In this document: positions 1 through 64,000 of the stretch, one piece after another
Layout: each line of letters begins with the position of its first letter
Position numbering within the stretch: position 1 is the first letter of the stretch
Source of the DNA: an uncultured Cytophagia bacterium
Lineage (GTDB): Bacteria; Zhuqueibacterota; Zhuqueibacteria; Thermofontimicrobiales; Thermofontimicrobiaceae
Assembly: GCA_964605145.1 (NCBI GenBank)
Contig: CAZSBG010000003.1
Location: 55,028 to 119,027, forward strand
Reading direction: 5' to 3'
Length of the DNA: 64,000 nt
Position numbers and translations under genes: made by a program
Notes under the pieces: model-generated
Seen by the model: only the letters and a program-made list of their open reading frames with translations
Told to the model about the DNA's origin: nothing
Database searches by the model: none

Positions 1-124
1 GTACATAAACCACCAAAGCGCACATTAGCGTAAATTGCCTGAACGTCATCATTTTTCCTGTCATATTTGTCCTTTTCATTTTAACGATTACAAGCGAAAT
101 ATTTTCATGTTTCGTTTGCACTCT

Positions 125-724
125 TCACTTCAGTTTGTACATCATTAATGTAATCAGCGAAAAAAAGAAAATTGTCGAAAAAATATAACAGGGCATGAAC
201 AAACGAATGCTCAGCAAACCGCTCTGAATTAAAGGACTGATAATTACGGCAACAAAATAAATCATCACGCCAAGCGTGACGCCGGCGCCCTGGGTCATAT
301 CGAAATTTTGCTTTTCATCATAAATTTCAGATGTCCTTTCAATCCGCATAATCAATGCAATATAAATCCAGAACAGCGCATACGGAAGAATAATCAATTT
401 CCATAAAACGCTGCGTACAAACAGGGGATCGAATACAAATATCGATACAAGGCCAAAGCCGCCAAATACAATGCCAAGAATATTCAAGATGACAAAAACA
501 CCTTCATTCATTTCAATAACTTTTGCCAATTTCGTTTTTGGGATAAAATAATACAAAATACCCGCAATTACTAAAACAACAACAACGAAAAGTCCCCATC
601 CGCTTGTTTCTATTTCATCTTCAAGATGAATAAAGACTTCCGAAACAATTCCGCCTCCGATTAAAATTAAAAATAGCAAGACGCCGAATAATTTGTTGAT
701 TGTGGCACTCATAATTCCCTCCAA
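125..724 (-). CDS. Hypothetical polytopic membrane protein (about 6 predicted TM helices), co-oriented with and 6 bp downstream of an XRE regulator
   Basis: 199-aa ORF that is almost entirely hydrophobic helices (LLFLILIGGGIV, FVVVVLVIAGILYYFI, ILGIVFGGFGLVSIFVF, VMIYFVAVIISPLI). Low GC (~40%) compared with neighbours. An XRE HTH gene paired with a membrane protein is a common two-gene unit. Confidence 0.5.
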   Translation of the reverse strand: MEGIMSATINKLFGVLLFLILIGGGIVSEVFIHLEDEIETSGWGLFVVVVLVIAGILYYFIPKTKLAKVIEMNEGVFVILNILGIVFGGFGLVSIFVFDPLFVRSVLWKLIILPYALFWIYIALIMRIERTSEIYDEKQNFDMTQGAGVTLGVMIYFVAVIISPLIQSGLLSIRLFMPCYIFSTIFFFSLITLMMYKLK

Positions 725-730
725 TAAAAT

Positions 731-955
731 TTATTTGTTCTCGTTTTCTGGCTCTTCAATAAGAAAGAACACCTCCTCCACCGGCTTGTTGAAAAAACGC
801 GCCAATTTCAAAGCCAGCAACGCCGATGGCACGAACCGTCCTTTTTCCAGCGAAAGAATCGTCTGCCGTGTCACTCCCACGGCTTTGGCGAGATATTCCT
901 GGGACATCTCCCCCCTTTCGAAGCGACACCGCCTGAGTGTGTTTCCTAATTTCAA
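731..955 (-). CDS. XRE-family (Cro/C1-type) helix-turn-helix transcriptional regulator
   Basis: 74 aa. The motif SQEYLAKAVGVTRQTILSLEKGRFVPSALLALKLARFF is a canonical HTH_3 / XRE family sequence. Confidence 0.8.
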   Translation of the reverse strand: MKLGNTLRRCRFERGEMSQEYLAKAVGVTRQTILSLEKGRFVPSALLALKLARFFNKPVEEVFFLIEEPENENK

Positions 956-1340
956 TGAATCACCTCCGATCTGGTGAATGGTTTACTGGTGAGTGGTGAA
1001 TTGTAAATTGGTAAATGGTAGCATCGTGGACTGGCCTTTTCATTTTAATTAAATTGATACGGTGAGATTTGGTAACATATTTCATACTAATTGTAAATCA
1101 AACTGTACACAATATACAAATGTAATTAGAAAATGTCAAGCTTTTTTTACATTTTGTTAGAATTATCTTACTTATAAAAATAGTATTTGATGATAAGATT
1201 TATTTGTGAGAAAATTGAAAATGAAAAGACGCAGGACTTATTGCTGAAGAGATGGTCAAAATCCAATCAAAAGTTGCAGGTGTGAAAAGTTTTATTGAAA
1301 AATGAAAAACGATTGTTCATTCATGTACGAGATAATAGAA

Positions 1341-1571
1341 TCAACCGCCGCCGACTAATTGAAACAGCTTCACCGAGTCTCCCTCCTTCAATGCATGAGT
1401 TAGCGGAACGCGCGAGCCATTCACCGCCACAAACGCGATTTCTTCCTTTGGCACACTCACCTGGCCAAGCACCCGAACGAGTGCGGATTTCTCTGGGAGG
1501 GTCAGTTCCAGCTCGGGATTGCCGTTGTTATACTTTTTCAGACTGCCGTGAAATGTTAGTGTTATTTTCAT
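1341..1571 (-). CDS. MoaD/ThiS-family ubiquitin-like sulfur carrier protein (C-terminal Gly-Gly)
   Basis: 76 aa with the beta-grasp size and a C-terminal ...KLFQLVGGG diglycine, typical of MoaD/ThiS. GC is native (~52%). Confidence 0.6.
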   Translation of the reverse strand: MKITLTFHGSLKKYNNGNPELELTLPEKSALVRVLGQVSVPKEEIAFVAVNGSRVPLTHALKEGDSVKLFQLVGGG

Positions 1572-2178
1572 TAATTTCAGCCCATTATTTGAGATAAATT
1601 TTATTTGCCTTGAATTGAAAGAGAAAAATACAAAAATTGTAGAAAGATGTCAACCTGATTTTTAATTTTTTGACATAGATAGCTTATGGCACATCAATGA
1701 ATAAAGCGAAAAAATTAGATTGATCAGGAGTAATGTTAAACTATTTATCATATAATTTTTAAAACTATTGATTCATTCAATATTTTTTATCATAATGATG
1801 TGTTGTCACGAGTAACTTTACTGCCCCCTCTTTAGTTTTTTCTTATGCAGGTTTTTCTCGTTACACATTTTTAATTTGATGTTCGAAATTACAATTCAAA
1901 ACCAAAATAGTAACTATTCAGCCACCGAGTCACAAAGAACACGGAGAAAAATTCAATCAAAAATTGCCATCATTTTTTGTAAATAGGATTGCCAAACAGT
2001 GAATACTATCTTTAAAAAGTTACATACATTAAAAACGAATTCATATTTATGCGAAGAATACGTATTGCATCATGTTATTCTGTTTCCAAATAGTTAATGA
2101 AAATATATTTCAATCACATTATGAGACACACTTTCCGAAAATAATTCATGAGAATATCTCTGAGCCCTCTGTGTCTCG

Positions 2179-3600
2179 GTGGCATTTTTCATAAGGCTGA
2201 ATAGTTACCCAAAATATAAGGATGATATTATGGAGACTTTTGAATCCAAGGTCTCTGATATTTTTAAAGAAAATCCCAGGCTTGCCAGAAAAATACCTGT
2301 TGTCATCCGGCAACTTTTCAAAGAATCCGAGGCTGAATTTCGAAGACGAATAAACAAAGCCTCAGAGCATGAACAACAGGTCGAAATGATGAAACTTTTC
2401 GACATCCTATTCATTGATTACTATTTTGATGAGATTGAAGACAACTTTTTAGCCTGGGTCATCAAAAATTATCCGAAGCGATTCACCAGCTCTGAATTAG
2501 AAGAAATGCGGGCACAGGCTTTTTCACATCTCGATTATTATGAAATTCAGGAAGCGATACCGGGAAAGGGAAGCTATTTTAAATCCCTGACTACCAACAC
2601 CGAAGGATTTTTGAAAGATATTTCTTCTTCTTCTGTTTTAGTCAAATGGGATATTCTTTTAGGGCGCTACTATTTTTATCAAGACACATATTTTGCAACA
2701 GGTGCAACCTCTCTATATAGCCAGTCTGATAAGGAATACATTGTAGAACAAATCGAGAAAGCTAAGCAGGAATATTTCGAAGCCAATCCGGAAGCCGACC
2801 ATGCTGAATTCGCTAAAAAACGTTGGGATATTTTTTTCAAGATTGATGACGGCCTGCGCGACAAGGCAAAGAACAAAAAATTCTATACAACATTCGGCGA
2901 GCTTCAATTCTGCGAAGTTCGGTTCAATATAAAAAATTTCCAGGCAATATTGAATACGATTGATAATTTAGACGAATTCGAGTTCGTCGAAGCCAAGACG
3001 ATCCGAAGAGGAAAGAAGAAAAGATTAAATCGCTTCGAGTTTGATTGGCTTACACTGGGAATAGAGGACGAATTGAATCCCATCCGCGTAACTGAATTTA
3101 ATAATGGACTCATGTTAAAAACAGAGCGATTGGACGCCGACGGAAATAAAATCAGAAATGAAACAATAGGGACTTTTTATCTGGATGTATTTCTGGGCCG
3201 GCTCGAAACAAAATCGCTGGAAATTGCCGAGTTTGCCAGGCACCATTTTGTGGATATTTTTGGGGGAGCGCTCACGTTCAAGCGCATTAACAAGTTGGAT
3301 ATTGATATCAAATCAAAACTCGAAGCACAATCCGATGAGACTGAACCTCTTCCTGTAGGTGACATAGATCCATCGCTGAAAGCCCGCGTAGAAGAACAGC
3401 TATTTCTGGATACGCTGGACGAAAAAATTCCCATGTTGAACAACAAAACGCCCCGCGAAGCCAGCCAAATCCCGGAACTGCGCCCCATACTGATAGACTG
3501 GCTCAAAAGCCTGGAAAACATAATGGAACGAAAGCAAAAATCAGGAGAATCCACGGCTTCCATTGAAAAGATAAAGAGGGAGCTGGGTATTGATTGGTGA
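2179..3600 (+). CDS. Hypothetical protein, compositionally atypical (low-GC) orphan gene
   Basis: 473-aa uninterrupted ORF, one of only two plus-strand genes. GC is ~38-40% against ~55% for its neighbours. It is flanked by a 580-bp AT-rich noncoding stretch upstream and a hairpin-rich 356-bp intergenic region downstream. It is rich in charged and aromatic residues and I recognise no motif. Confidence 0.5.
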   Translation: MAFFIRLNSYPKYKDDIMETFESKVSDIFKENPRLARKIPVVIRQLFKESEAEFRRRINKASEHEQQVEMMKLFDILFIDYYFDEIEDNFLAWVIKNYPKRFTSSELEEMRAQAFSHLDYYEIQEAIPGKGSYFKSLTTNTEGFLKDISSSSVLVKWDILLGRYYFYQDTYFATGATSLYSQSDKEYIVEQIEKAKQEYFEANPEADHAEFAKKRWDIFFKIDDGLRDKAKNKKFYTTFGELQFCEVRFNIKNFQAILNTIDNLDEFEFVEAKTIRRGKKKRLNRFEFDWLTLGIEDELNPIRVTEFNNGLMLKTERLDADGNKIRNETIGTFYLDVFLGRLETKSLEIAEFARHHFVDIFGGALTFKRINKLDIDIKSKLEAQSDETEPLPVGDIDPSLKARVEEQLFLDTLDEKIPMLNNKTPREASQIPELRPILIDWLKSLENIMERKQKSGESTASIEKIKRELGIDW

Positions 3601-3780
3601 GGGGAGGGGACACGAACCAATCTGATTCATTACAATCAGAACCTGACATTTACAATTCTATGCTAAATATTTTTAGCATGATCGGTTAGTCAAATCCGCC
3701 CTTTTTCCCTTTTGGGAGCAATTCCCTAAAGTTGTTAAAAACCGTTGAAACGGTTGTAATTGGTTTATTTGTCATTGACC

Positions 3781-3853
3781 ATCACCATAATAAATTATGG
3801 TGTTGATTTGATTCAACTGAGATTGAGCGAACACCACAATTTATTGTGGTGTT
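3781..3853. repeat. Two related palindromes ACACCA(Y)AAT-NN-ATT(R)TGGTGTT, 49 bp apart
   Basis: ATCACCATAATAAATTATGGTGTT (3781-3804) and AACACCACAATTTATTGTGGTGTT (3830-3853). Neither is followed by a U-tract. Confidence 0.45.
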
Positions 3854-3956
3854 AACTGCATAATAAAATGAGAAATAATTTCAGCAGTTTTCAGTAGTGC
3901 TATTTCATAAAGAAAAATAGGAATTTATGGGACTTGCACCCGTCCCTTTTTATATT

Positions 3957-5756
3957 TTATTTGGAAATATCCCCCAAAATTTCATCCAACTGCAACTCGC
4001 GCAGTTTCTCCGGCGTGGGAATGCCATTTTCATCCCAGCCCATGAGCTGGTAATATTCGGCGCGCATTTCGTCCAATTCCACTACGTGGCCTTTGGCCGG
4101 ACCTTTTGCAAGCGGCTCGCTCAGGCAGCGTTTGGGAAGGGTATCATCCTTTTTGGTGAGTCCTTCTCGCACATTGAACATGCGGGCCAGGGTGGTCACG
4201 CGCTCCCCCACTTTTTCCAGTTCGCGCGGATTTTTATAATCAAACCCGGTACATGGATTGACCATCTGCCACACCTCTTTCAGCGTGAAGCCGAACTTGG
4301 TGAAATAGCAAATAATGGCGCAGTCGATGACCGCGGTGTCCAACTGATTCATCTTGAACAACGACGCTTTGCCGGAGACCTCCAGCGGATCGGCGCCGCC
4401 CATAAGCTCGCTCAGCGGCGAACCGTGGAGATGACACGCGCCCCGTTCGGAAATGGCGTAGCTGAGTCCCACACCTTTGGCCCCGCGCGGCAGATAACCG
4501 GGCATTTCCAGGCCCTTCACGTGCATGGCATATTCTTCACTGCCGGGATAATTTTTGCTGAATTCGCGCACGCCTTTTTCCAGTTTCGCACCGATTCCTT
4601 CCCCGGCACAGATTTTTTTCGTCAGTTCAATGAGCGCTTCGCTGCTGCCCCATGTAGCCTCAATGCCATCGAGGTCAGCATTTGACAATATTTTGCGCTG
4701 ATAAAGTTCCATGACAAAACCGATAATCACGCCCACGCTGATGGTATCGATACCGAAATCATCGCACAGGTGGTTCACCTTGATGATAGCCTCGCGATCA
4801 GTGACGCCGCAGTTACTGCCCAGCGCGAAAATGGTTTCATACTCCGGGCCGTCCACGCGCATGCCCAGTTTTTTGTGCTGAGCGATCTTTGTGCAGCCAA
4901 TGCCGCAGCCGTAACACGCAGCCGACTCGTTCCAGTATTCATCGGTCCATGTTTCCCCCCACAATTCCTGATGGCCTTCGAATTGTCCTTCCTGGAAATT
5001 GCGCGTCGGCAATCCCCCGGCCGCGTTGATGAGCTCGACGATATTGGCAGTGCCGTGCTCCTTCATCCGCTGAATCTGCGAGCTCATGCGCAGCATTCGA
5101 TTGGCGACCCACACCATCTCCTGGAACAGAGCAGGGTCTTTCACAGCCACCGCGCCGGTGCCCCGAACTGCCACAGCTTTGAGATTTTTCGAGCCCATAA
5201 CAGCGCCGGCGCCGCCGCGTCCGGCAGTGCGCAGATCGCAGAAAATTCCTGCGATGGGCGCCATACGCTCCGCTGCCTGGCCTATCACCGCGGTTTTGAA
5301 CTCCTTGCCATATTTTTCCGTCAGCTTTGTCGTTGCTGCCATGGTGCCGGTTCCCCAAAGATCGCCGGCATCGTCCAGCCGAACCGAGTCGTTATCGATG
5401 ACCAGCACTTTTGGCGAAGCAGCCCGGCCGGTCATCACGATGGCGTCGTAGCCGGCCCATTTCATGGTCTGGCCGAAAAAACCACCGGCATAGGAATCGA
5501 GAATGGTGCCGGTGGCCGGACTTTTGGTGAATACGCCCAATCGCCCGGCAGTGGGCGCTGTGGTGCCGGTGAGCGGGCCGACCGCAAAAATGAGCGGGAC
5601 TTTAGGCGCGAGCGGATCGGTATGCGGCGCCAATTCGTTGTACAAAATCAAGCTGGCCAAACCCTTTCCGCCAAGCACCAGCCGCATGACTTTTTCATTC
5701 AATTCTTCAGTTTTAATCGTCCCGGTCGAAAGATCGACGCGCAGTATTTTATTCAT
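3957..5756 (-). CDS. aor: Tungsten-containing aldehyde:ferredoxin oxidoreductase (AOR family)
   Basis: AOR-family N-terminus (MNKILRVDLSTG...) and the conserved 4Fe-4S cysteine ligand cluster (ESAACYGCGIGCTKI), ~600 aa. The ORF extends to 5807, but the AOR-like start (MNKILRVDL) is the internal Met at 5756. Confidence 0.85.
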   Translation of the reverse strand: MNKILRVDLSTGTIKTEELNEKVMRLVLGGKGLASLILYNELAPHTDPLAPKVPLIFAVGPLTGTTAPTAGRLGVFTKSPATGTILDSYAGGFFGQTMKWAGYDAIVMTGRAASPKVLVIDNDSVRLDDAGDLWGTGTMAATTKLTEKYGKEFKTAVIGQAAERMAPIAGIFCDLRTAGRGGAGAVMGSKNLKAVAVRGTGAVAVKDPALFQEMVWVANRMLRMSSQIQRMKEHGTANIVELINAAGGLPTRNFQEGQFEGHQELWGETWTDEYWNESAACYGCGIGCTKIAQHKKLGMRVDGPEYETIFALGSNCGVTDREAIIKVNHLCDDFGIDTISVGVIIGFVMELYQRKILSNADLDGIEATWGSSEALIELTKKICAGEGIGAKLEKGVREFSKNYPGSEEYAMHVKGLEMPGYLPRGAKGVGLSYAISERGACHLHGSPLSELMGGADPLEVSGKASLFKMNQLDTAVIDCAIICYFTKFGFTLKEVWQMVNPCTGFDYKNPRELEKVGERVTTLARMFNVREGLTKKDDTLPKRCLSEPLAKGPAKGHVVELDEMRAEYYQLMGWDENGIPTPEKLRELQLDEILGDISK

Positions 5757-31585: not shown

Positions 31586-32854
31586 CTATCTCCCCCCAAC
31601 AACCTCCATCGCCATGTGCGCCCACTCCCACAATCGCTGCGGCTGGTACTGCACCGTGCTGATGTCTTTCATAATTATTTCAACAACGCAGCCCTGTAAT
31701 TTCTCCAAATCAGCGACTAATTTTTTGCGGGCTGCTTCCAAATTCCAATTATCAGTTGCCAGCACTGCCGGATTGGGTTTGTATGAAATAACATAATTTT
31801 CACCAATATTCGCGGCGGCTTTGTCCAGATCGGCCCACGGGCTGATGGAAATCTTTCGCAGATTCGGGATGGATTTCAAAATACTCATTTTATGGTGAAG
31901 AGGCTCACAGCACCCATAATAATTCAATCCGAACCGCTCCAGCCAGCGGCGCTCGTATTGCAGGGCAAATTCTTCATGCATGGCCGGAGATACATCGCAG
32001 AATATCTGCGCTGTGGCGCAGCCCCACAAATCAACCGTCCGCACCGTTTTTGGATCGAATCCCGGCTTCGGCAGTTCATCGGTGTAGCCCAGGCCACCGG
32101 AACCGACGCGAAAATTACCCTCAGCATAGGAGAGAAGATTCAGATCGATGTACTGATCCAGCCGGCACAAATACGCGGAAATCAATCGTTCCATAACCAG
32201 ATGAACCAGCTCCGGCCGCATCGCCAAATCCATCAGCGCGTCCTGCACATCCCACCAGCGAATCAGTTCATCCCACGGTGCAAACCATTGATGAACGATA
32301 CCCCGCTTTTTCACTGGTAAAATATCACCAAAGATATTCGACAAAACCTGAAAATTCTCCTCACTGGCGTTTTCATCGTGATGTATCACCGGCATTTTAA
32401 TTTTCTCGATATCCGATTCATTTTGGATTTGCTGATGAAATCCCCGCGAGAGAATATTGCTCTTTTCATCCTGTTTGATAAAATCCACGTCCTCTGTGAT
32501 GCCGAAACCGGAGTCGCGAATAACCAGGGGCGAGTAAAACGCATTTTCAACCAGCATATCGAACGGCGCATGCATCCAAAGGTATATTGTGCGCCGAAGC
32601 TCCTGTTCTGTCCATCGGCAATATTCATTTTCGCATTGCAGCGTTAACTCGCCGTTCACGTCCATTTCATGCCAGGGGAATTCATTAATCCAAACCAGCG
32701 GCCGAACTTTTTTGAGTCCATTGAGCCTGCGCCACAAATCCGCCTTGTGTTGATGTAAAGGTAAAGCGGCAATTTCAGCGACTTTTTCAGCGAGTTGTCT
32801 CAGGATGGATTTGTCATTTGAGGATATTTTCATTCCATTATATTTTTCTATCAA
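31586..32854 (-). CDS. Hypothetical protein, distant URO-D-superfamily-like (third paralog in the region)
   Basis: C-terminal pattern YYGCCEPLHHKMSILKSIPNLRKISISPWAD...NYVISYKPNPAVL...LQGCVVEI parallels HICGNITNHLPDLFKINADIIDFD...TVICGNFDPVEIL...SPGCEVP of the 28506-29525 gene. Confidence 0.4.
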   Translation of the reverse strand: MIEKYNGMKISSNDKSILRQLAEKVAEIAALPLHQHKADLWRRLNGLKKVRPLVWINEFPWHEMDVNGELTLQCENEYCRWTEQELRRTIYLWMHAPFDMLVENAFYSPLVIRDSGFGITEDVDFIKQDEKSNILSRGFHQQIQNESDIEKIKMPVIHHDENASEENFQVLSNIFGDILPVKKRGIVHQWFAPWDELIRWWDVQDALMDLAMRPELVHLVMERLISAYLCRLDQYIDLNLLSYAEGNFRVGSGGLGYTDELPKPGFDPKTVRTVDLWGCATAQIFCDVSPAMHEEFALQYERRWLERFGLNYYGCCEPLHHKMSILKSIPNLRKISISPWADLDKAAANIGENYVISYKPNPAVLATDNWNLEAARKKLVADLEKLQGCVVEIIMKDISTVQYQPQRLWEWAHMAMEVVGGR

Positions 32855-32884
32855 TATACGTCAAATAAAACTGATTTTATCTAT

Positions 32885-33060
32885 CCTCGATTATTCACAT
32901 GATATTCCTAAAGGTATCGAGATAACCTGAATGGTGCTGAATTTAGAGAGTAGTGCATTTTTACGTCTAAAACTGAGTTTCAAATTAATTGATAATTCAA
33001 TTTGCTAATAATCAGGTAATTGAATCAATTTTATTATAATTACATGAATAATTCAGGCTA
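32885..33060. repeat. Intergenic repeat element, copy A (~176 bp, 13-bp terminal inverted repeats)
   Basis: The ends CCTCGATTATTCA ... TGAATAATTCAGG are inverted. There is an internal stem CCTCGAT/ATCGAG and a conserved core GATAACCTGAATGGTGCTGAATT. It lies 31 bp upstream of the start of gene 31586-32854. Confidence 0.6.
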
Positions 33061-33141
33061 TATCAAAATTATGACCAGGACTTATTTTCCTCTACAATTC
33101 AATTCCTTCGAGTCCTGGAGACTTCGCGGCAATATTTCGCA

Positions 33142-37095: not shown

Positions 37096-40426
<3,331 letters not shown>

Positions 40427-40446
<20 letters not shown>

Positions 40447-41411: not shown

Positions 41412-42071
41412 CTATTTTCCAATGCTCAGCGCAATAAGTAGCTGTCCTGAGTAATAAAACGCCAGGCTGATCCTATTTAATTTGAAAGGATGACGAAATT
41501 TATTGATCGCCAAAATCAGATCTGACAGGTAAAACAGCACTGCACCACCAGTAATGAACACAGCCCTGGTAAAGCTGAAATATTCATTGTAAAGACTTGC
41601 AAAAGCTCGATTCAGCATGACTGTGATAATGATGACATAAAATAAAACAGGCAGCTTCATCCCTCCAAGCCCTTTGAAGAGATAGGCATAGACAATTGCC
41701 GCAACGGTGAATAGAATAACCCCGGGGATCAAATCGTGTCGGCTTAACTGAAATGGAATTGAAAACGCGATGGTATAAATAATATGCGTCACCAGAAAAA
41801 ATATCAGCCCCAGCATAAATGCTTTTTTGGATTTTCTGATGAGCGCCACATCGCCTCCAAAAGAAAAGAGGAGACCGGCAAGGATGAAATAAAAATAAAT
41901 TGGAGAGGCGAGCTCCCGACTTAACACAGGGATTAAAGCAATGAAAATAACGGTCAGTGTGGACAAAGGTTTGAATATGCAAATTTGAGTGAGCTTTTCA
42001 GCGAATTCAGCCCGAATCAGCAGTGTCACTAAAACAAAGAGAATTCCGATAGCAACACAATAAATAATCAT
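41412..42071 (-). CDS. YhhN-family (lysoplasmalogenase-like) polytopic membrane protein
   Basis: 219 aa, ~8 TM helices, with the FKPLSTL motif (compare FKPLTM in YhhN). Confidence 0.45.
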   Translation of the reverse strand: MIIYCVAIGILFVLVTLLIRAEFAEKLTQICIFKPLSTLTVIFIALIPVLSRELASPIYFYFILAGLLFSFGGDVALIRKSKKAFMLGLIFFLVTHIIYTIAFSIPFQLSRHDLIPGVILFTVAAIVYAYLFKGLGGMKLPVLFYVIIITVMLNRAFASLYNEYFSFTRAVFITGGAVLFYLSDLILAINKFRHPFKLNRISLAFYYSGQLLIALSIGK

Positions 42072-42123
42072 TGATCTCCTTTCATTATATTAAAATTCTA
42101 CAGAATTAAAAATAATCAACTAA

Positions 42124-42288
42124 CCTGGATTATTCATTGTAATTCATTAAGGAATCCAGATAGCCTGAATGGTGCTTAATTCAGAATTCGTTATATCAAA
42201 CTCTGTTAAATTTCACACATCTCGTTAATCTTTTTAATAACATTTATTTATATATGTTTAGGTTGAAATCTGTGAATAATTCAGGCTA
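42124..42288. repeat. Intergenic repeat element, copy B (~165 bp, 13-bp terminal inverted repeats)
   Basis: Ends CCTGGATTATTCA ... TGAATAATTCAGG match 12 of 13 bp as inverted repeats. Internal stem CCTGGAT/ATCCAG; core GATAGCCTGAATGGTGCTTAATTCAG. It lies 52 bp upstream of the YhhN-like gene start. Confidence 0.6.
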
Positions 42289-42333
42289 AAAGTAATGAAT
42301 GATCATTCATCACACAAATTGGCAATTTCTATT

Positions 42334-42903
42334 TCATTCTTGGTTCATAAATTCGTCCCTCAGGATTCCGTAAAATTCGATGTCTTCAAATACTCCCCAT
42401 TTCTTCACATGTTTTCTGAGCGTTCCTTCCTTTTTCATCCCGAGCTTTTGCATCACCCGCCCCGAAGAAGAATTACGGCTCAAGTGATGGGCATAAATTT
42501 TATGCAATTCTAATTGTTCAAATCCATATTGCAGCATTGCTCGCGCAGCTTCTGTGCAGTAGCCATGATTCCAGTATTTTCTTCCGATCCAGTAGCCCAT
42601 GGCAGCAGTTTCATGAACTTCGGAGATTTCCGAGAGTCCAATGGCGCCAATGAGATCCTTTTTCTGGCGGTGGATAATCGCTAAAATCACCTCAGTTTTC
42701 TCCTCAAACAAACGTTGATGCGTACTGATCCATGTATTGGCCATGCCATCTTCGTAGGGATGTGGAATATTTAGCGTGGTGGAAGCGACTGATTTGTCAC
42801 CGGCAAGTTCGGTTACAACTTGTGCGTCATCCAGCGAGAATTGCCTGAGAATTAATTTTTCAGTGGTCAAGCGCGGATATTTTTTTGTGGATGTTGGATT
42901 CAT
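42334..42903 (-). CDS. GNAT-family N-acetyltransferase (RimJ/RimL-like)
   Basis: LILRQFSLDDAQVVTEL...; 189 aa with the GNAT motif A region (IGAIGLSEI...GYWIGRKYWNHGYCTEAARAM). Confidence 0.8.
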   Translation of the reverse strand: MNPTSTKKYPRLTTEKLILRQFSLDDAQVVTELAGDKSVASTTLNIPHPYEDGMANTWISTHQRLFEEKTEVILAIIHRQKKDLIGAIGLSEISEVHETAAMGYWIGRKYWNHGYCTEAARAMLQYGFEQLELHKIYAHHLSRNSSSGRVMQKLGMKKEGTLRKHVKKWGVFEDIEFYGILRDEFMNQE

Positions 42904-59494: not shown

Positions 59495-60184
59495 TTATCC
59501 AAACATCTTCCGGAACCGTGGATAATCAGGAATAATAACCTTCCGTCCGTGCCTTTCCATTAATCCTTCATCCTCCAAATAGCGGAAAACCCGCGAAATA
59601 GTTTCGCGCGATGTCCCGGCCATATTGGCTAAATCCTGCTGCAATGGAATTTTGTGGATCACAACGCGCCCCTGTTTGATGATGCCGGCATCCTCGGCAA
59701 GCAGGATCAACGTAGAGGCAACCCGTCCCATTGCGTCCTGCAACGACAGACTTTTAATTTGCGTATCACTCTTTCGAATTCGCGCCGCGAGTTCCTTGAG
59801 CAAGCTGATGGCTATCTGGGGATATTCCTCGAGGAGCCCCAGAAAATCACCGCGGCGCAACATTAGTACTTCCGAGTCTTCAATGGCCGTTACGCTGGCC
59901 GAGCGAGCCTTGCCATCAATCAGTGAAAGCTCTCCAAAAAATTCACCGCGTTCAAGAATGGAAAGAATCACTTCACGCCCATCATCGCTCATCCGGGAAA
60001 CCTTCACCCTGCCCTTCTGAATGATAAAAAGCGTATTTCCGCTTTCTTCTTCAATTAAAATGATGCGATCTTTTACGTAATGCTGTGTGACGCACAAATC
60101 CCTGATTTTGTCCAACTCATCATCCAGTAGCTGAGAAAAAATTGGCACTCGTTTCAGTAGATTTATTTCCATGGGACCTCCCAT
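59495..60184 (-). CDS. Crp/Fnr-family transcriptional regulator
   Basis: cNMP-binding domain (GEFFGELSLIDGKARSASV) plus a C-terminal HTH (RETISRVFRYLEDEGLM). Confidence 0.85.
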   Translation of the reverse strand: MGGPMEINLLKRVPIFSQLLDDELDKIRDLCVTQHYVKDRIILIEEESGNTLFIIQKGRVKVSRMSDDGREVILSILERGEFFGELSLIDGKARSASVTAIEDSEVLMLRRGDFLGLLEEYPQIAISLLKELAARIRKSDTQIKSLSLQDAMGRVASTLILLAEDAGIIKQGRVVIHKIPLQQDLANMAGTSRETISRVFRYLEDEGLMERHGRKVIIPDYPRFRKMFG

Positions 60185-60304
60185 AAAAAAGTATTATTTA
60201 AATTGTCCCCAGTTAAATGATAAAAAGCAATGATGCACGCATAACTATGGGAGTTGAAATTCCCCCTAAATTTAATTCTCAGAAAAGCTATCCGCGTGAA
60301 AATT

Positions 60305-60928
60305 CTACATCCTCTCCAATTCAGCGATCATATCATAAACGATATCCATCACATGATCCGCCTGCTGCTGAAGTTTTTCCTTGTTTTCTCTATTTGTGGG
60401 TATCTTTTCCAGGTTTATTGGTTCTCCAATTTTTGCCCGGACTTTCACCATCCGCGGAAACCACGCGCCGGGCGGCAACACTTTGTCCGTCCCGTACATG
60501 GCAATGGGAACAACCGGACAATCAGCCAACAAAGCCATGCGAACAAATCCGGTTCTCGGCCGGTTTCGCTGACCATTTTCTTTTTTGCGCGTGCCTTCAG
60601 GAGCGATATAAAGTACGTTGCCATCTTTGAGTAAATTCACTGCACCATTAAATGCTTTATGATCAGAAGCATCCCGAACAACAGGAAACATCCCCACGGC
60701 CTTTAACCACCATTTTAGCACCGGCACGCGAAACAGGGAGTCCTTTGCCATGGCGTAAGCCTTGCGGTTGACGACAAGCGCCATGGTCACAACATCCATA
60801 TTGCTGCTATGATTGATCACGCCAATATAAGCCCCTTTTTTCGGCAGATTTTCTCGTCCGTATACTTTCCCTCTGAGATAAGTTTTTGTAAATAGAAGTA
60901 GAATAAATCGAGAAATCCAAAAAACCAT
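60305..60928 (-). CDS. plsC: 1-acyl-sn-glycerol-3-phosphate acyltransferase (PlsC family)
   Basis: HX4D motif INHSSNMD and the APEGTR motif. Confidence 0.85.
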   Translation of the reverse strand: MVFWISRFILLLFTKTYLRGKVYGRENLPKKGAYIGVINHSSNMDVVTMALVVNRKAYAMAKDSLFRVPVLKWWLKAVGMFPVVRDASDHKAFNGAVNLLKDGNVLYIAPEGTRKKENGQRNRPRTGFVRMALLADCPVVPIAMYGTDKVLPPGAWFPRMVKVRAKIGEPINLEKIPTNRENKEKLQQQADHVMDIVYDMIAELERM

Positions 60929-61071
60929 ATTATTTCCTCACAGACAAAAATTTAATTAGTGCTTCCCCCCGGATTTTCAAAATTACGATTTTAGAATTTT
61001 AAAATCAAGGATATTTTTTCATGTATTTTAAATAAAATCAATTTGAAATTATCGTACTTATCAAAGAATAT

Positions 61072-61683
61072 TCACTGCGATCTTTCCCGATACAATCCTT
61101 TGTTATCAATATATGTTACGACATCATGTGGAATCATATCTGAAATGGTTTTTTCAGCGGCGATTCTCTCTCGAATCGATGTTGAAGAAATATCGATTAA
61201 TGGCGTTTCAAGAATTTTGACGTGATTTGCAATAAAGCCTGGCACCGCTGACAAGTCTGCTCCTGGTCGTTGGAACACAACAACTGTGCATCTTTCGATG
61301 ATTTCGTCAGGACATCGCCAGAAGGGAAGATCGATCAGGCTATCGCCGCCAATTAAGAGAAAAAGCTGGTTCGGACCCAGCCCAAATTTATCACGATAAT
61401 AATTAATCGTATCAATCGTATATGAAATTCCCTTACGAAGAATTTCAACATCCGATATTTCAAAATCTGGGTGATTTTCAATTGCAAGTTGTGTCATTTT
61501 TAAACGATGTTCAGCGCTTGCAATAACAGCACCAAGCTTGTGTGGAGGATTCGCTGCAGGTATAAAGATGATTTTATCCAGAGATAATTTATTTTTTGTC
61601 CATTCGGCAATCTTCAAATGACCATTGTGAACTGGATCGAAGGATCCCCCAAATAGGCCAATTTTCATTTTTCCACTATCCAT
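61072..61683 (-). CDS. nadD: Nicotinate-nucleotide adenylyltransferase
   Basis: IGLFGGSFDPVHNGHL with the (H/T)xGH motif; 203 aa. Confidence 0.85.
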   Translation of the reverse strand: MDSGKMKIGLFGGSFDPVHNGHLKIAEWTKNKLSLDKIIFIPAANPPHKLGAVIASAEHRLKMTQLAIENHPDFEISDVEILRKGISYTIDTINYYRDKFGLGPNQLFLLIGGDSLIDLPFWRCPDEIIERCTVVVFQRPGADLSAVPGFIANHVKILETPLIDISSTSIRERIAAEKTISDMIPHDVVTYIDNKGLYRERSQ

Positions 61684-61738
61684 TCCGATCGAAAAAAGCA
61701 GATCTCAATTCTACATCATGGTAATAGAAAAGAGCTGC

Positions 61739-62512
61739 TCAGCCTTTCTGTTCCTCTGTCTTCATTTTGGACAATATATTTTTTACACGAGAAATTTTTG
61801 CGCTGTCCGGGTATTTTTCCAAATAAAGTTGATAGTATTTTGCTGCTTCGTCCATATCGCCGGCTTTCTGATACGCTTCTGCTTTGCCAAACAACGCTTT
61901 TTCTGCATATTTTGTATCGTAATAATTATCCAGCACATGATCGTAATATTTTATCGCGGCCGTGTATAACCTTCTCTTACGATAGGACATAGCATTTTCA
62001 TAATCTTTTCGGGCAAGTTTCTCCCGACATTTCGTCATATATTTATTGGCCTCAGGGACAAGGTCGCTGTTTGGATAGTCCTCGAGAAACCGCTGAAATT
62101 CCTCAATTGCTTTTTGCGTATTCGTTTGATCGAGAGAATATTTTGGCGACAGTTGATAATTGCTCATTGCAATTTTATACCGAGCGTCATCAACATATTC
62201 ACTATTTGGAAATATGCGCGTCAATTTTTGATATTCAGCGCTTGCCAGAATATATTCTTTTAAATTATAGTGGCACTCTCCTAAGTAAAATTGGGCGCGG
62301 TCACTTACGGTACTCCCCGGAAAATTCAGCGTAATTATTTTAAATTCAGTTTTTGCATCGAGATAATCGCCATCTTTGAACATTTTCTCAGCGATTTTCA
62401 TTCGTTCATCTGCAGTTAATGTGGCTTTAATTCGGTTTCTGCCACAAGACGTAAGAATCGCTATTAACATAATAAAGAAAAGTAAGTATTGTTTTCTCAT
62501 CACAAGTTTCAT
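61739..62512 (-). CDS. bamD: Outer membrane protein assembly factor BamD-like TPR lipoprotein
   Basis: Lipobox (LTSCG) and TPR repeats with a BamD-like pattern (...DRAQFYLGECHY...YPNSEYVDDARYKIAMSNYQ...). Confidence 0.7.
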   Translation of the reverse strand: MKLVMRKQYLLFFIMLIAILTSCGRNRIKATLTADERMKIAEKMFKDGDYLDAKTEFKIITLNFPGSTVSDRAQFYLGECHYNLKEYILASAEYQKLTRIFPNSEYVDDARYKIAMSNYQLSPKYSLDQTNTQKAIEEFQRFLEDYPNSDLVPEANKYMTKCREKLARKDYENAMSYRKRRLYTAAIKYYDHVLDNYYDTKYAEKALFGKAEAYQKAGDMDEAAKYYQLYLEKYPDSAKISRVKNILSKMKTEEQKG

Positions 62513-62523
62513 AAAATAATCCT

Positions 62524-63162
62524 TTAACTACTGCGCAATCTAAAAAAGAGATAAATAATGCTAAGTGTCGTCGCTATCACTACAGAAGGTTCAATGTATT
62601 TCTTTAATCCGGGATTTTGTGGAATTACGGCCTGGGTAAAATTGAAACTTTTGTTTTGAAGATTCTTTATTTTGTCTTTTTGAACCGTATCGCGATACGT
62701 CTCCGAGAATGTATCAAATGCCAATACTTTTCCGGTACGTGATTCAACAATTCGAACAGAAACAACAAGTTCAAATATTCGATCTAATTCATCTTTCTCC
62801 GCTCCTACCTCATACTTTACCTCAAGCGTCATTATCTGGAATTTCACTCCGTAATCGCAGCACGCAGAATCATTGACCTGATAGAGATAAATTTGGTCGA
62901 TACCGATTTTTGAGCATTCTTGCATCATCGCATTCTCGATCAGCCAATTTCCCTCAGCCTGCTTTTTCTGAGGTTGTATCGAGATGGAAATTGATGAATC
63001 CAGCGTGACCTGCTCCAATATTTCATGCACAGCTTTTGCAGCCAGTTGCTTGAATACTGTTAAATTTTTCACTGGTGTATCACTGGCTCCCAATGCCATA
63101 ACCGGGTAAATGAGGAAAAGAACGGGTAATCGGGTAACAATTGATTTGACTAATTTATTCAT
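62524..63162 (-). CDS. Hypothetical secreted/membrane-anchored protein
   Basis: N-terminal signal peptide and a C-terminal hydrophobic helix. No motif recognised. Confidence 0.4.
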   Translation of the reverse strand: MNKLVKSIVTRLPVLFLIYPVMALGASDTPVKNLTVFKQLAAKAVHEILEQVTLDSSISISIQPQKKQAEGNWLIENAMMQECSKIGIDQIYLYQVNDSACCDYGVKFQIMTLEVKYEVGAEKDELDRIFELVVSVRIVESRTGKVLAFDTFSETYRDTVQKDKIKNLQNKSFNFTQAVIPQNPGLKKYIEPSVVIATTLSIIYLFFRLRSS

Positions 63163-63270
63163 AAAATAATCAACAATTAATACTCATATAGTTTAATAAA
63201 GTTCCCGGTGAATATTCAGCGCTGATCGATTCCTTTCGCATTTAGCATTGTGTCAGGTGCGGCAATGAAT

Positions 63271-63999
63271 CTATAAACGAATAAGCAGAGAAAGCACATG
63301 CCAATGCTGTTCCTTTGTTGCCTGTTTTTGGTAGACAAAAGAGTAATTTAATAAAAACTGAGAATGGCTGAATCGATTTTGTTTTTGATAGAAAATATTG
63401 GAATCGATAAGACCGATCCCACCGGAAATTACGTGATTTTTTGAGAATCGTTCTCTATAATAGCCCCCGCGCAGCGCAAAAATTGAAAACACATTTTGTT
63501 CAAATCCAAAATGAGCCTCCCGCACTGTTTTCCGTTTGTCTTCGGTTAAATTCCGAAAATCGAAGGCAATTAAAGTGCTTGAGGTCGGGCGGTAAGCCAC
63601 GCCGATATTCATGGTCTCATCGGACATCCGCTCCACTGGCATTCGAATATCAGGAATATTTTTCGGGAAATCTACATAAGCCAGTCCAACATTCAATTTC
63701 TGCGACGGCTTCAACAAAATTCCATAACTGAATCCCAGATCCTGTTGCGTCTGACTATCTATTTTGTTCACATACAGACTGCCGGAAAACCCGAGGGATA
63801 CGCGTTCCGCCAGCTTAATGCGTGTATAAAAAGAGTGATAGCTATTTTTCCAGATATCGTTATTCTCAAAAAATTTTTTTTGCGCTGCGAGAACGCTGTT
63901 ATCAAGTATTTGTTCATGGAAAACAAGTGCCATATCCAAATATCGCCCGCTAAATGCAACGCTCTTGACAAATAACGCGCTTGATTTCAGAATATCCAC
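63271..63999 (-). CDS. Hypothetical protein (may extend beyond the window edge)
   Basis: ORF running to the window end; unknown function. Confidence 0.35.
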   Translation of the reverse strand: MDILKSSALFVKSVAFSGRYLDMALVFHEQILDNSVLAAQKKFFENNDIWKNSYHSFYTRIKLAERVSLGFSGSLYVNKIDSQTQQDLGFSYGILLKPSQKLNVGLAYVDFPKNIPDIRMPVERMSDETMNIGVAYRPTSSTLIAFDFRNLTEDKRKTVREAHFGFEQNVFSIFALRGGYYRERFSKNHVISGGIGLIDSNIFYQKQNRFSHSQFLLNYSFVYQKQATKEQHWHVLSLLIRL

Positions 64000-64000
64000 T

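Follow-up and report, generated by a model that had tools for sequence, protein, structure and literature searches.

The spacer between a GNAT acetyltransferase gene and the gene of a YhhN-family membrane protein contains a non-coding element of 162 bp, here called copy B. It lies in a 64-kb stretch of DNA, the window. Homologues of the YhhN protein are named lysoplasmalogenase in the sources. The spacer measures 262 nt with copy B inside it, and the earlier placement of the element between these two genes, with 52 nt separating it from the YhhN start codon, holds. All genes near copy B and nearly all genes of the window are on the minus strand, and the ribosome-binding region of the YhhN gene is intact. 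No long open frame was found in a six-frame translation of the element. A second member of the same family, copy A, is located between a methyltransferase gene and a gene for a 415-aa protein of unknown function. Both copies have a G+C content of 28% against 41-46% locally. The features are collected in Table 1.

Table 1. Positions of the two elements, of the parts of copy B and of the genes next to copy B, in window coordinates.
Feature	Position	Strand	Remarks
Copy A, same element family, 173 bp	32885..33057	-	4-bp duplication CTAT at 32881-32884 and 33058-33061
YhhN-family membrane protein gene, downstream of copy B	41412..42071	-	Pfam PF07947 (YhhN), E 4.9e-37; start codon ATG 52 nt from element
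Target site duplication, proximal copy	42120..42123		CTAA on + strand, TTAG on gene strand; recurs at 42286-42289
Terminal inverted repeat, module side, CCTGGATTATTCA	42124..42136	+	Imperfect, G at position 5; 12/13 vs other end; fits CCTGAAWWATTCATA
Terminal hairpin P2	42124..42160	-	Arms 42124-42131 and 42153-42160, 21-nt loop; covarying pair 42127/42157
Conserved 62-nt end module, common to copy A	42124..42185		51/62 aligned positions identical
Internal copy of repeat tip after TAG (TAGCCTGAAT, 42161-42170) and local hairpin CTGAAT/ATTCAG	42161..42184		Hairpin arms 42165-42170 / 42179-42184
AT-rich variable interior of copy B	42186..42272		Unrelated to copy A interior
Far-end terminal inverted repeat, CCTGAATTATTCA on minus strand	42273..42285	-	Complete match (13/13) to copy A and to both ends of Clostridium IS in L027
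Target site duplication, distal copy CTAA	42286..42289		Matches 42120-42123
GNAT acetyltransferase gene, upstream of copy B	42334..42903	-	Pfam PF13302 (Acetyltransf_3), E 3.4e-35; stop codon 44 nt from distal duplication

The surroundings show several further features. A perfect 16-nt palindrome (ATGAATGA/TCATTCAT) at window positions 42295-42310, followed by a T-run on the gene strand, comes closely after the GNAT stop codon and directly precedes the insertion point. The relatives described below keep it with one change; beside the target it may form a weak, AT-rich hairpin resembling a terminator. In a metagenome-assembled genome (MAG) of Candidatus Zhuqueibacterota (L014:9841-10000) a PAS/GAF sensor kinase gene is followed by a 160-nt spacer and YhhN. 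The GNAT gene is missing there, which makes this gene itself a variable insertion in an otherwise syntenic region. The same MAG keeps, beside YhhN, the gene for an 1116-aa protein (window 37096-40446, minus strand) that overlaps the preceding NTP-transferase gene by 20 nt; the sole Pfam match of this protein is a UDPGP (UTP-glucose-1-phosphate uridylyltransferase) segment near the C-terminus. The G+C content is 0.36-0.40 at window positions 1-4000 and 60000-64000 and 0.43-0.53 elsewhere. A 473-aa plus-strand ORF (2179-3600) and a 199-aa ORF (125-724) are without Pfam match.

Copy B is bounded by the 13-bp terminal inverted repeats CCTGGATTATTCA and TGAATAATTCAGG, which match at 12 of 13 positions, as claimed in the original prediction. 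A repeat search returned these ends as a 16-nt inverted pair (42121-42136 and 42273-42288) with 88% complementarity. The predicted left end at 42124 was correct, but the right end had been placed at 42288, which includes three flank bases, and the true boundary is 42285. Directly outside these boundaries the four bases CTAA (plus strand; TTAG when read on the gene strand) stand on either side as a direct repeat. The first inverted repeat is adjoined by a hairpin, CCTGGATT...AATCCAG, followed by ATAGCCTGAATGGTGCTTAATTCAG, and the core GATAGCCTGAATGGTGCTTAATTCAG occupies 42159-42184. In both copies the hairpin of the module is formed by the terminal 8 nt and an inverted copy of these about 20 nt inside, and a further copy of the tip follows after TAG/TAA. 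In copy B the segment 42161-42170 is complementary at 10 of 10 positions to 42279-42288, which comprises the tip of the far inverted repeat and three nucleotides of duplicated target. A compensatory change had been noted in the stem, CCTGGAT...ATCCAG in copy B against CCTCGAT...ATCGAG in copy A, and one pair, 42127/42157, is indeed changed on both sides, from C-G in copy A to G-C in copy B. The stem has 8 pairs in B and 7 in A, and the other pairs are kept. The core hairpin CTGAAT/ATTCAG is also tighter in copy B, as stated, since it is perfect there and has one mismatch in copy A.

Copy A is flanked by ATAG on both sides, read on the gene strand, and its inverted repeats match at 11 of 13 positions. 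A joint profile built from both copies found them in the window with E values of 6e-46 and 2e-40 and gave no other match there. The 19-nt core occurs twice in the window, against 0.01 occurrences expected. What the copies have in common is a 13-nt end (13/13 identical) and a module of 62-63 nt at the other end (51/62 identical). The interiors of 87-97 nt have an identity of 0.69, compared to a null value of 0.669 +/- 0.027, and 86 of 300 shuffles scored as well. One 4-bp duplication per copy accounts for all eight flanking bases of A and B.

Comparison with related strains revealed an unoccupied version of the copy B site. A homologue of the YhhN protein with 94% identity is encoded on contigs L011, L012 and L013. 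These come from three other sequencing runs, SRR28369932, SRR28370466 and SRR28093312, have a DNA identity of 94-95% to the window along as much as 8.6 kb, and keep its gene order. These contigs are colinear with the window save for the absence of 42124-42285, and they carry a single TTAG at the site. The relatives read ...CATAAATT-TTAG-ATGATT..., and the window reads ...TTACTT-TTAG-(162 bp)-TTAG-TTGATT... In the blastn alignment of the relatives to the window the first segment ends at 42286 and the second resumes at 42123, with an overlap of exactly four query bases. Copy B and its counterpart in the relatives form a clean pair of filled and empty sites, of an element with a 4-bp target site duplication. 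As to the direction of the event, we infer, by parsimony only, an insertion here and not a precise loss in the relatives.

The element is not an assembly artefact of the window, since it is present at both sites, with one SNP, in the assemblies of SRR7048224 and SRR7048225, which contain the exact proteins of the window. Six Logan contigs reach copy A or copy B from a flank, and all of them end inside the element, covering all four junctions. One of these contigs stems from SRR7048224 and three stem from SRR7048225 on their own; two more duplicate the same junctions. Breaks inside the element are expected where a repeat with several copies enters a de Bruijn graph, and they hint at more copies, as supporting evidence only, in assemblies that are generally fragmented.

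For copy A no clean empty site was found in the relatives. The corresponding site in related contigs L016-L018 has no element, with 56 unaligned nucleotides against 268, in spacers that are too diverged for a clean comparison. In a 92%-identical relative (L019:1790-1862, equivalent to about 32881-33061 of the window) a different, G+C-richer segment of about 64 nt occurs in place of copy A. This segment, enclosed by two ATAG motifs in flanks that look homologous to those of the window, contains the small hairpins CCCCGA...TCGGGG and GGGC...GCCC. It may reflect another small element at this target or else an unrelated divergence of the spacer. The 415-aa protein encoded next to copy A (window 31586-32833, minus strand) has no Pfam domain, but 6919 database proteins match it at E<1e-30. 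Its homologues are about 65% identical across many phyla and all named ones are called hypothetical. The gene is part of a cluster with two URO-D-like genes, a methyltransferase gene, a DUF6635 gene and a gene for a CobW-like GTPase, and this cluster is kept in relatives.

The inverted repeats connect the element to a known family of insertion sequences. A scan of viral contigs for TAGCCTGAATTATTCA, which is TAG followed by the 13-nt repeat, gave nine matches, eight of which are due to chance. The ninth, on contig L027, is accompanied by the same 13-mer in inverted orientation 1.6 kb away. The element at this locus (L027:2723-4371) is 1649 bp long, has perfect 15-nt ends (CCTGAATTATTCATA) and is flanked by a 5-bp duplication, TTTAG/TTTAG. 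Its product is an IS1380-family transposase of 440 aa (NCBIfam NF033539, E 3.6e-116; Pfam PF13701 (DDE_Tnp_1_4), E 8.7e-143) that is 100% identical to a protein of Clostridium sp. 2-1. The contig is classed as viral, the element adjoins a gene that resembles a phage tail-fibre gene by appearance, and the whole looks like an IS that has entered a prophage. The far repeat of copy B matches both ends of this IS completely and agrees with those of five further elements of the IS1380 family.

Further IS1380-family ends were taken from annotated plasmids of Enterococcus, Vagococcus, Tetragenococcus and Alicyclobacillus. Ends reading CCTGAATAATTCATA are found in an Enterococcus faecium element between vanR and a Tn3-family resolvase gene (duplication TTATA), in an ISSsu5-like element with no recognisable duplication, and in an IS1678-like element of which the left flank lies beyond the start of the record. 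A Tetragenococcus element ends in CCTGAATGATTTATA and duplicated TTGGA, and an Alicyclobacillus element ends in CCTGAAATATTCATA and duplicated ATAT. The end pattern common to these Bacillota elements is CCTGAAWWATTCATA, and this is the repeat of the element described here. The proteobacterial IS1247-like and ISPme1-like ends have only the CC start in common with it. IS1247, a member of the IS1380 family, is reported to have 16/13 repeats and a 5-bp direct repeat (PMC3281130). Among the full-length IS copies with readable flanks the duplication is 5 bp in three of four, and it is 4 bp in both small copies. The similarity to the IS stops after about 13-18 nt at every IS end examined. The internal inverted copy of the tip and the terminal hairpin were absent from all full-length IS1380-family ends examined, which makes the internal tip copy a feature of the small-element lineage. 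The vanR-associated element was seen, as L036:1106-2780, in the E. faecium plasmid NZ_CP059757.1, where it is located between vanR-A and the Tn3-family resolvase gene in the vanA (Tn1546-type) region. Many E. faecium plasmids among the matches show this arrangement too.

The inverted repeats, the 4-bp target site duplication and the IS1380-type ends identify the element as a non-autonomous miniature transposable element (MITE). That copy B is such a MITE, with IS1380-type ends, inserted into the GNAT-YhhN spacer of this lineage, is very probable. The small size of 162 bp (173 bp for copy A), the lack of a transposase gene in either copy, the inverted repeats, the target duplication and the empty site are all as seen in MITEs. 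The description as a repeat element flanked by inverted repeats was right and has gained in strength through the duplication, the empty site and the IS1380-type ends. Most likely, a transposase of the IS1380 family moved the MITE in trans. In such a mechanism a DDE transposase of this family, with its gene at another place in the genome, would bind both CCTGRATTATTCA ends. It would make a 4-bp staggered cut at an AT-rich NTAG/CTAN target, to which the element would be joined, and repair of the gaps would then produce the target duplication. These steps are postulated, whereas the ends, the duplication, the empty site and the family-specific repeat were observed.

Some observations speak against the assignment. 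The IS with identical ends belongs to Clostridium, which is another phylum. The short reach of the similarity to that IS, the 5-bp duplications that prevail in the full-length relatives and the missing clean empty site of copy A also count against it. Only two copies are known, both in the 64 kb of the window, and their interiors are not shared; in a homogeneous MITE family this would be unusual. When the window and all fetched loci were searched with a profile for degenerate copies, none turned up beyond A and B. Searches for the conserved core gave, among the matches listed, five unrelated chance matches in genome contigs and a single unrelated match in metagenome contigs. Four patterns, of the core or of two blocks, gave chance matches or none in viral contigs, and blastn of the element against plasmids returned AT-rich noise only. 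No transposase gene is present within the window, and a protein search revealed no relative of the Clostridium transposase from the lineage of the window. The best 120 named relatives of that transposase are mostly from Clostridia.

The mosaic relationship of copies A and B can be explained in different ways. The two could be independent deletion derivatives of one parent, or they could result from recombination between MITE lineages. A third option lies in the surrogate ends that IS1380-family transposases are known to accept (PMC9330008).

A related question is whether the conserved 62-nt module has a function of its own. It combines the hairpin with the covarying pair and the tip copy that is complementary to the opposite junction. 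It could form a DNA or RNA structure that an IS1380/piggyBac-like transposase requires to move this MITE lineage, or it could act as an RNA element, for instance in processing, stabilisation or termination, which the host puts up with or makes use of in operon spacers. Such a function would account for a module that is kept while interiors are swapped, but we regard it as unlikely. Folded as DNA, the 66-67-nt modules have energies of -7.1 kcal/mol (B) and -3.5 kcal/mol (A), with z values of -1.7 and 0.0. Whatever role the internal hairpins and the tip copy may have, if any, they are features of the MITE lineage.

The 4-bp duplications raise the possibility that the MITE was moved by another family which makes TA-containing duplications of this length, such as the IS5 group. 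The CTAA/TTAG duplication of copy B fits the 4-bp YTAR motif of IS5 (PMC5009759), and MITEs derived from the IS5 family are known in Porphyromonas, which belongs to the FCB group (PMC4596501). Yet the CTAT/ATAG duplication of copy A is not YTAR, and the inverted repeats, which match IS1380-family ends at 13 of 13 positions, are unrelated to those of IS5; the IS5-family repeats in Porphyromonas start with GAGACC (PMC4596501), unlike the repeats found here. Mobilisation by such a family is very improbable.

The original prediction laid weight on the compensatory stem and on the possibility that the element drives or attenuates expression of the downstream gene. Beyond the bare observation, no support was obtained for this. 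The compensation concerns a single pair in weak hairpins. In a shuffle control 240 of 500 cases were as good for the covarying pair, which reflects that a test on two sequences has no power. By a rough estimate, a stem of 8 pairs that has diverged by 16-18% would show one such double change by chance with a probability of about 0.07. Concerted change of the palindrome arms through hairpin-templated repair offers a neutral alternative. Rfam searches of the whole window at gathering thresholds and of both copies at E<=10 gave only snoRNA and miRNA matches at noise level. Scans for sigma-70-like promoters and intrinsic terminators within the element found none, in a phylum of which the promoters may differ.

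A rival explanation holds that the element is a cis-regulatory structured RNA, like a leader, an attenuator or a riboswitch, transcribed from the minus strand upstream of YhhN and the 415-aa gene, and switching between P1 plus P2 and paired ends. Both copies do have the same orientation, upstream of a gene start and on the transcribed strand, but nearly all genes of the window are on the minus strand and the shared orientation means little. Both copies retain P1 (10 pairs) and P2 (7-8 pairs), including the one compensatory pair, a G-C to G-U change is compatible only with the minus strand, and mutually exclusive pairings exist. Against this, P1 uses bases of the duplicated target, which lie outside the element, and the covariation test is powerless for the reason given above. 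The RNA fold of the whole region is better than that of shuffled sequences for copy B (z -2.9, 1/200), but not for copy A (z -0.5). The genes downstream of A and B are unrelated, and no Rfam match was found even at the relaxed threshold. The sequence stands between the two copies of a duplicated target, and strains that have the same genes and 94-95% identical flanks (L011-L013) lack it in this spacer. As an explanation for the origin of the sequence, a structured RNA is largely refuted, and we consider a regulatory RNA of this type very improbable. The element is ordinary selfish DNA and not a new regulatory RNA. An incidental effect of the MITE on YhhN expression is possible, given an insertion 52 nt upstream of the gene, but it would be a by-product and would not explain why the sequence is there. 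The ends of the IS1380-family elements ISEcp1 and ISPme1 can carry outward promoters (PMC9330008).

A hairpin-dependent single-strand element of the PATE (IS200/IS605-type) or REP-like kind, inserted 3' of a TAG-containing tetranucleotide without duplication, is extremely improbable: the hairpins at one end with a covarying pair, the internal segment complementary to the junction including flank bases, the single orientation of both copies and a single-TTAG empty site that equally fits insertion next to TTAG would agree with it, but 13-bp inverted repeats are absent from such elements, hairpins are confined to one end, the flanking tetranucleotides begin with a base that changes together on both sides (T/T in B, A/A in A), as in a duplication and unlike a fixed cleavage site carried by the element, and the ends are identical to those of an element with a DDE transposase.

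Two other proposals were rejected. A duplication of TA, as for IS630/mariner-like elements, or of the three bases TAG does not explain why, in A as well as in B, TAG is preceded by the same base on the two sides. With such a duplication the outermost bases would no longer form inverted repeats, and several coincidences would be needed. An IS110/bridge-RNA-like role of the junction-complementary segment was rejected because the insertion sites share only TAG, and inverted repeats and a duplication are present.

The MITE with IS1380-type ends can be compared to known systems. Correia elements duplicate TA. Full-length IS1380-family elements of Bacillota resemble the MITE in their inverted repeats, the CC start, the duplication of 4-5 bp of AT-rich targets and the intergenic insertion. 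They differ in length, being 1.65-1.7 kb with a DDE transposase of about 440 aa, whereas the MITE has 162 bp that encode nothing. The prokaryotic MITEs, such as Correia of Neisseria, BrickBuilt/MITE239 of Porphyromonas gingivalis and the QMITEs of Coxiella, are likewise small, AT-rich, non-coding and intergenic, with inverted repeats and target duplications (PMC4596501, PMC10969869). Filled/empty polymorphism, repeats shared with a full-length IS family and predicted stem-loop transcripts are further points of agreement (PMC4596501, PMC10969869). Unlike the MITE described here the Porphyromonas elements have IS5-family ends, and the two copies of this study share only their ends. The transposition units of ISPme1 and ISEcp1, also of the IS1380 family, tolerate imperfect and surrogate ends and mobilise variable DNA (PMC9330008, PMC3281130). 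By analogy, such tolerance could explain both the imperfect repeats (12/13 and 11/13) and the unrelated interiors. Those units consist of a complete IS with its transposase and adjacent host genes, whereas here both ends are conserved and a transposase is lacking.

Little documentation appears to exist for an assignment of MITEs to the IS1380 family. Among papers with both terms in title or abstract none was found that ties a MITE to this family, which is not proof of absence. The host is unusual, as it is an uncultured lineage with a Candidatus Zhuqueibacterota MAG as its nearest named relative, and the MITE itself is of an ordinary kind. In practical terms, the feature should be masked as a MITE and not pursued as a riboswitch or promoter element, and elements like this break metagenome assemblies at exactly these points. 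The finding links a MITE to IS1380-family ends, and it records that a transposon was active recently, with an insertion polymorphism between strains, in an uncultured lineage of the FCB group that is related to Candidatus Zhuqueibacterota.
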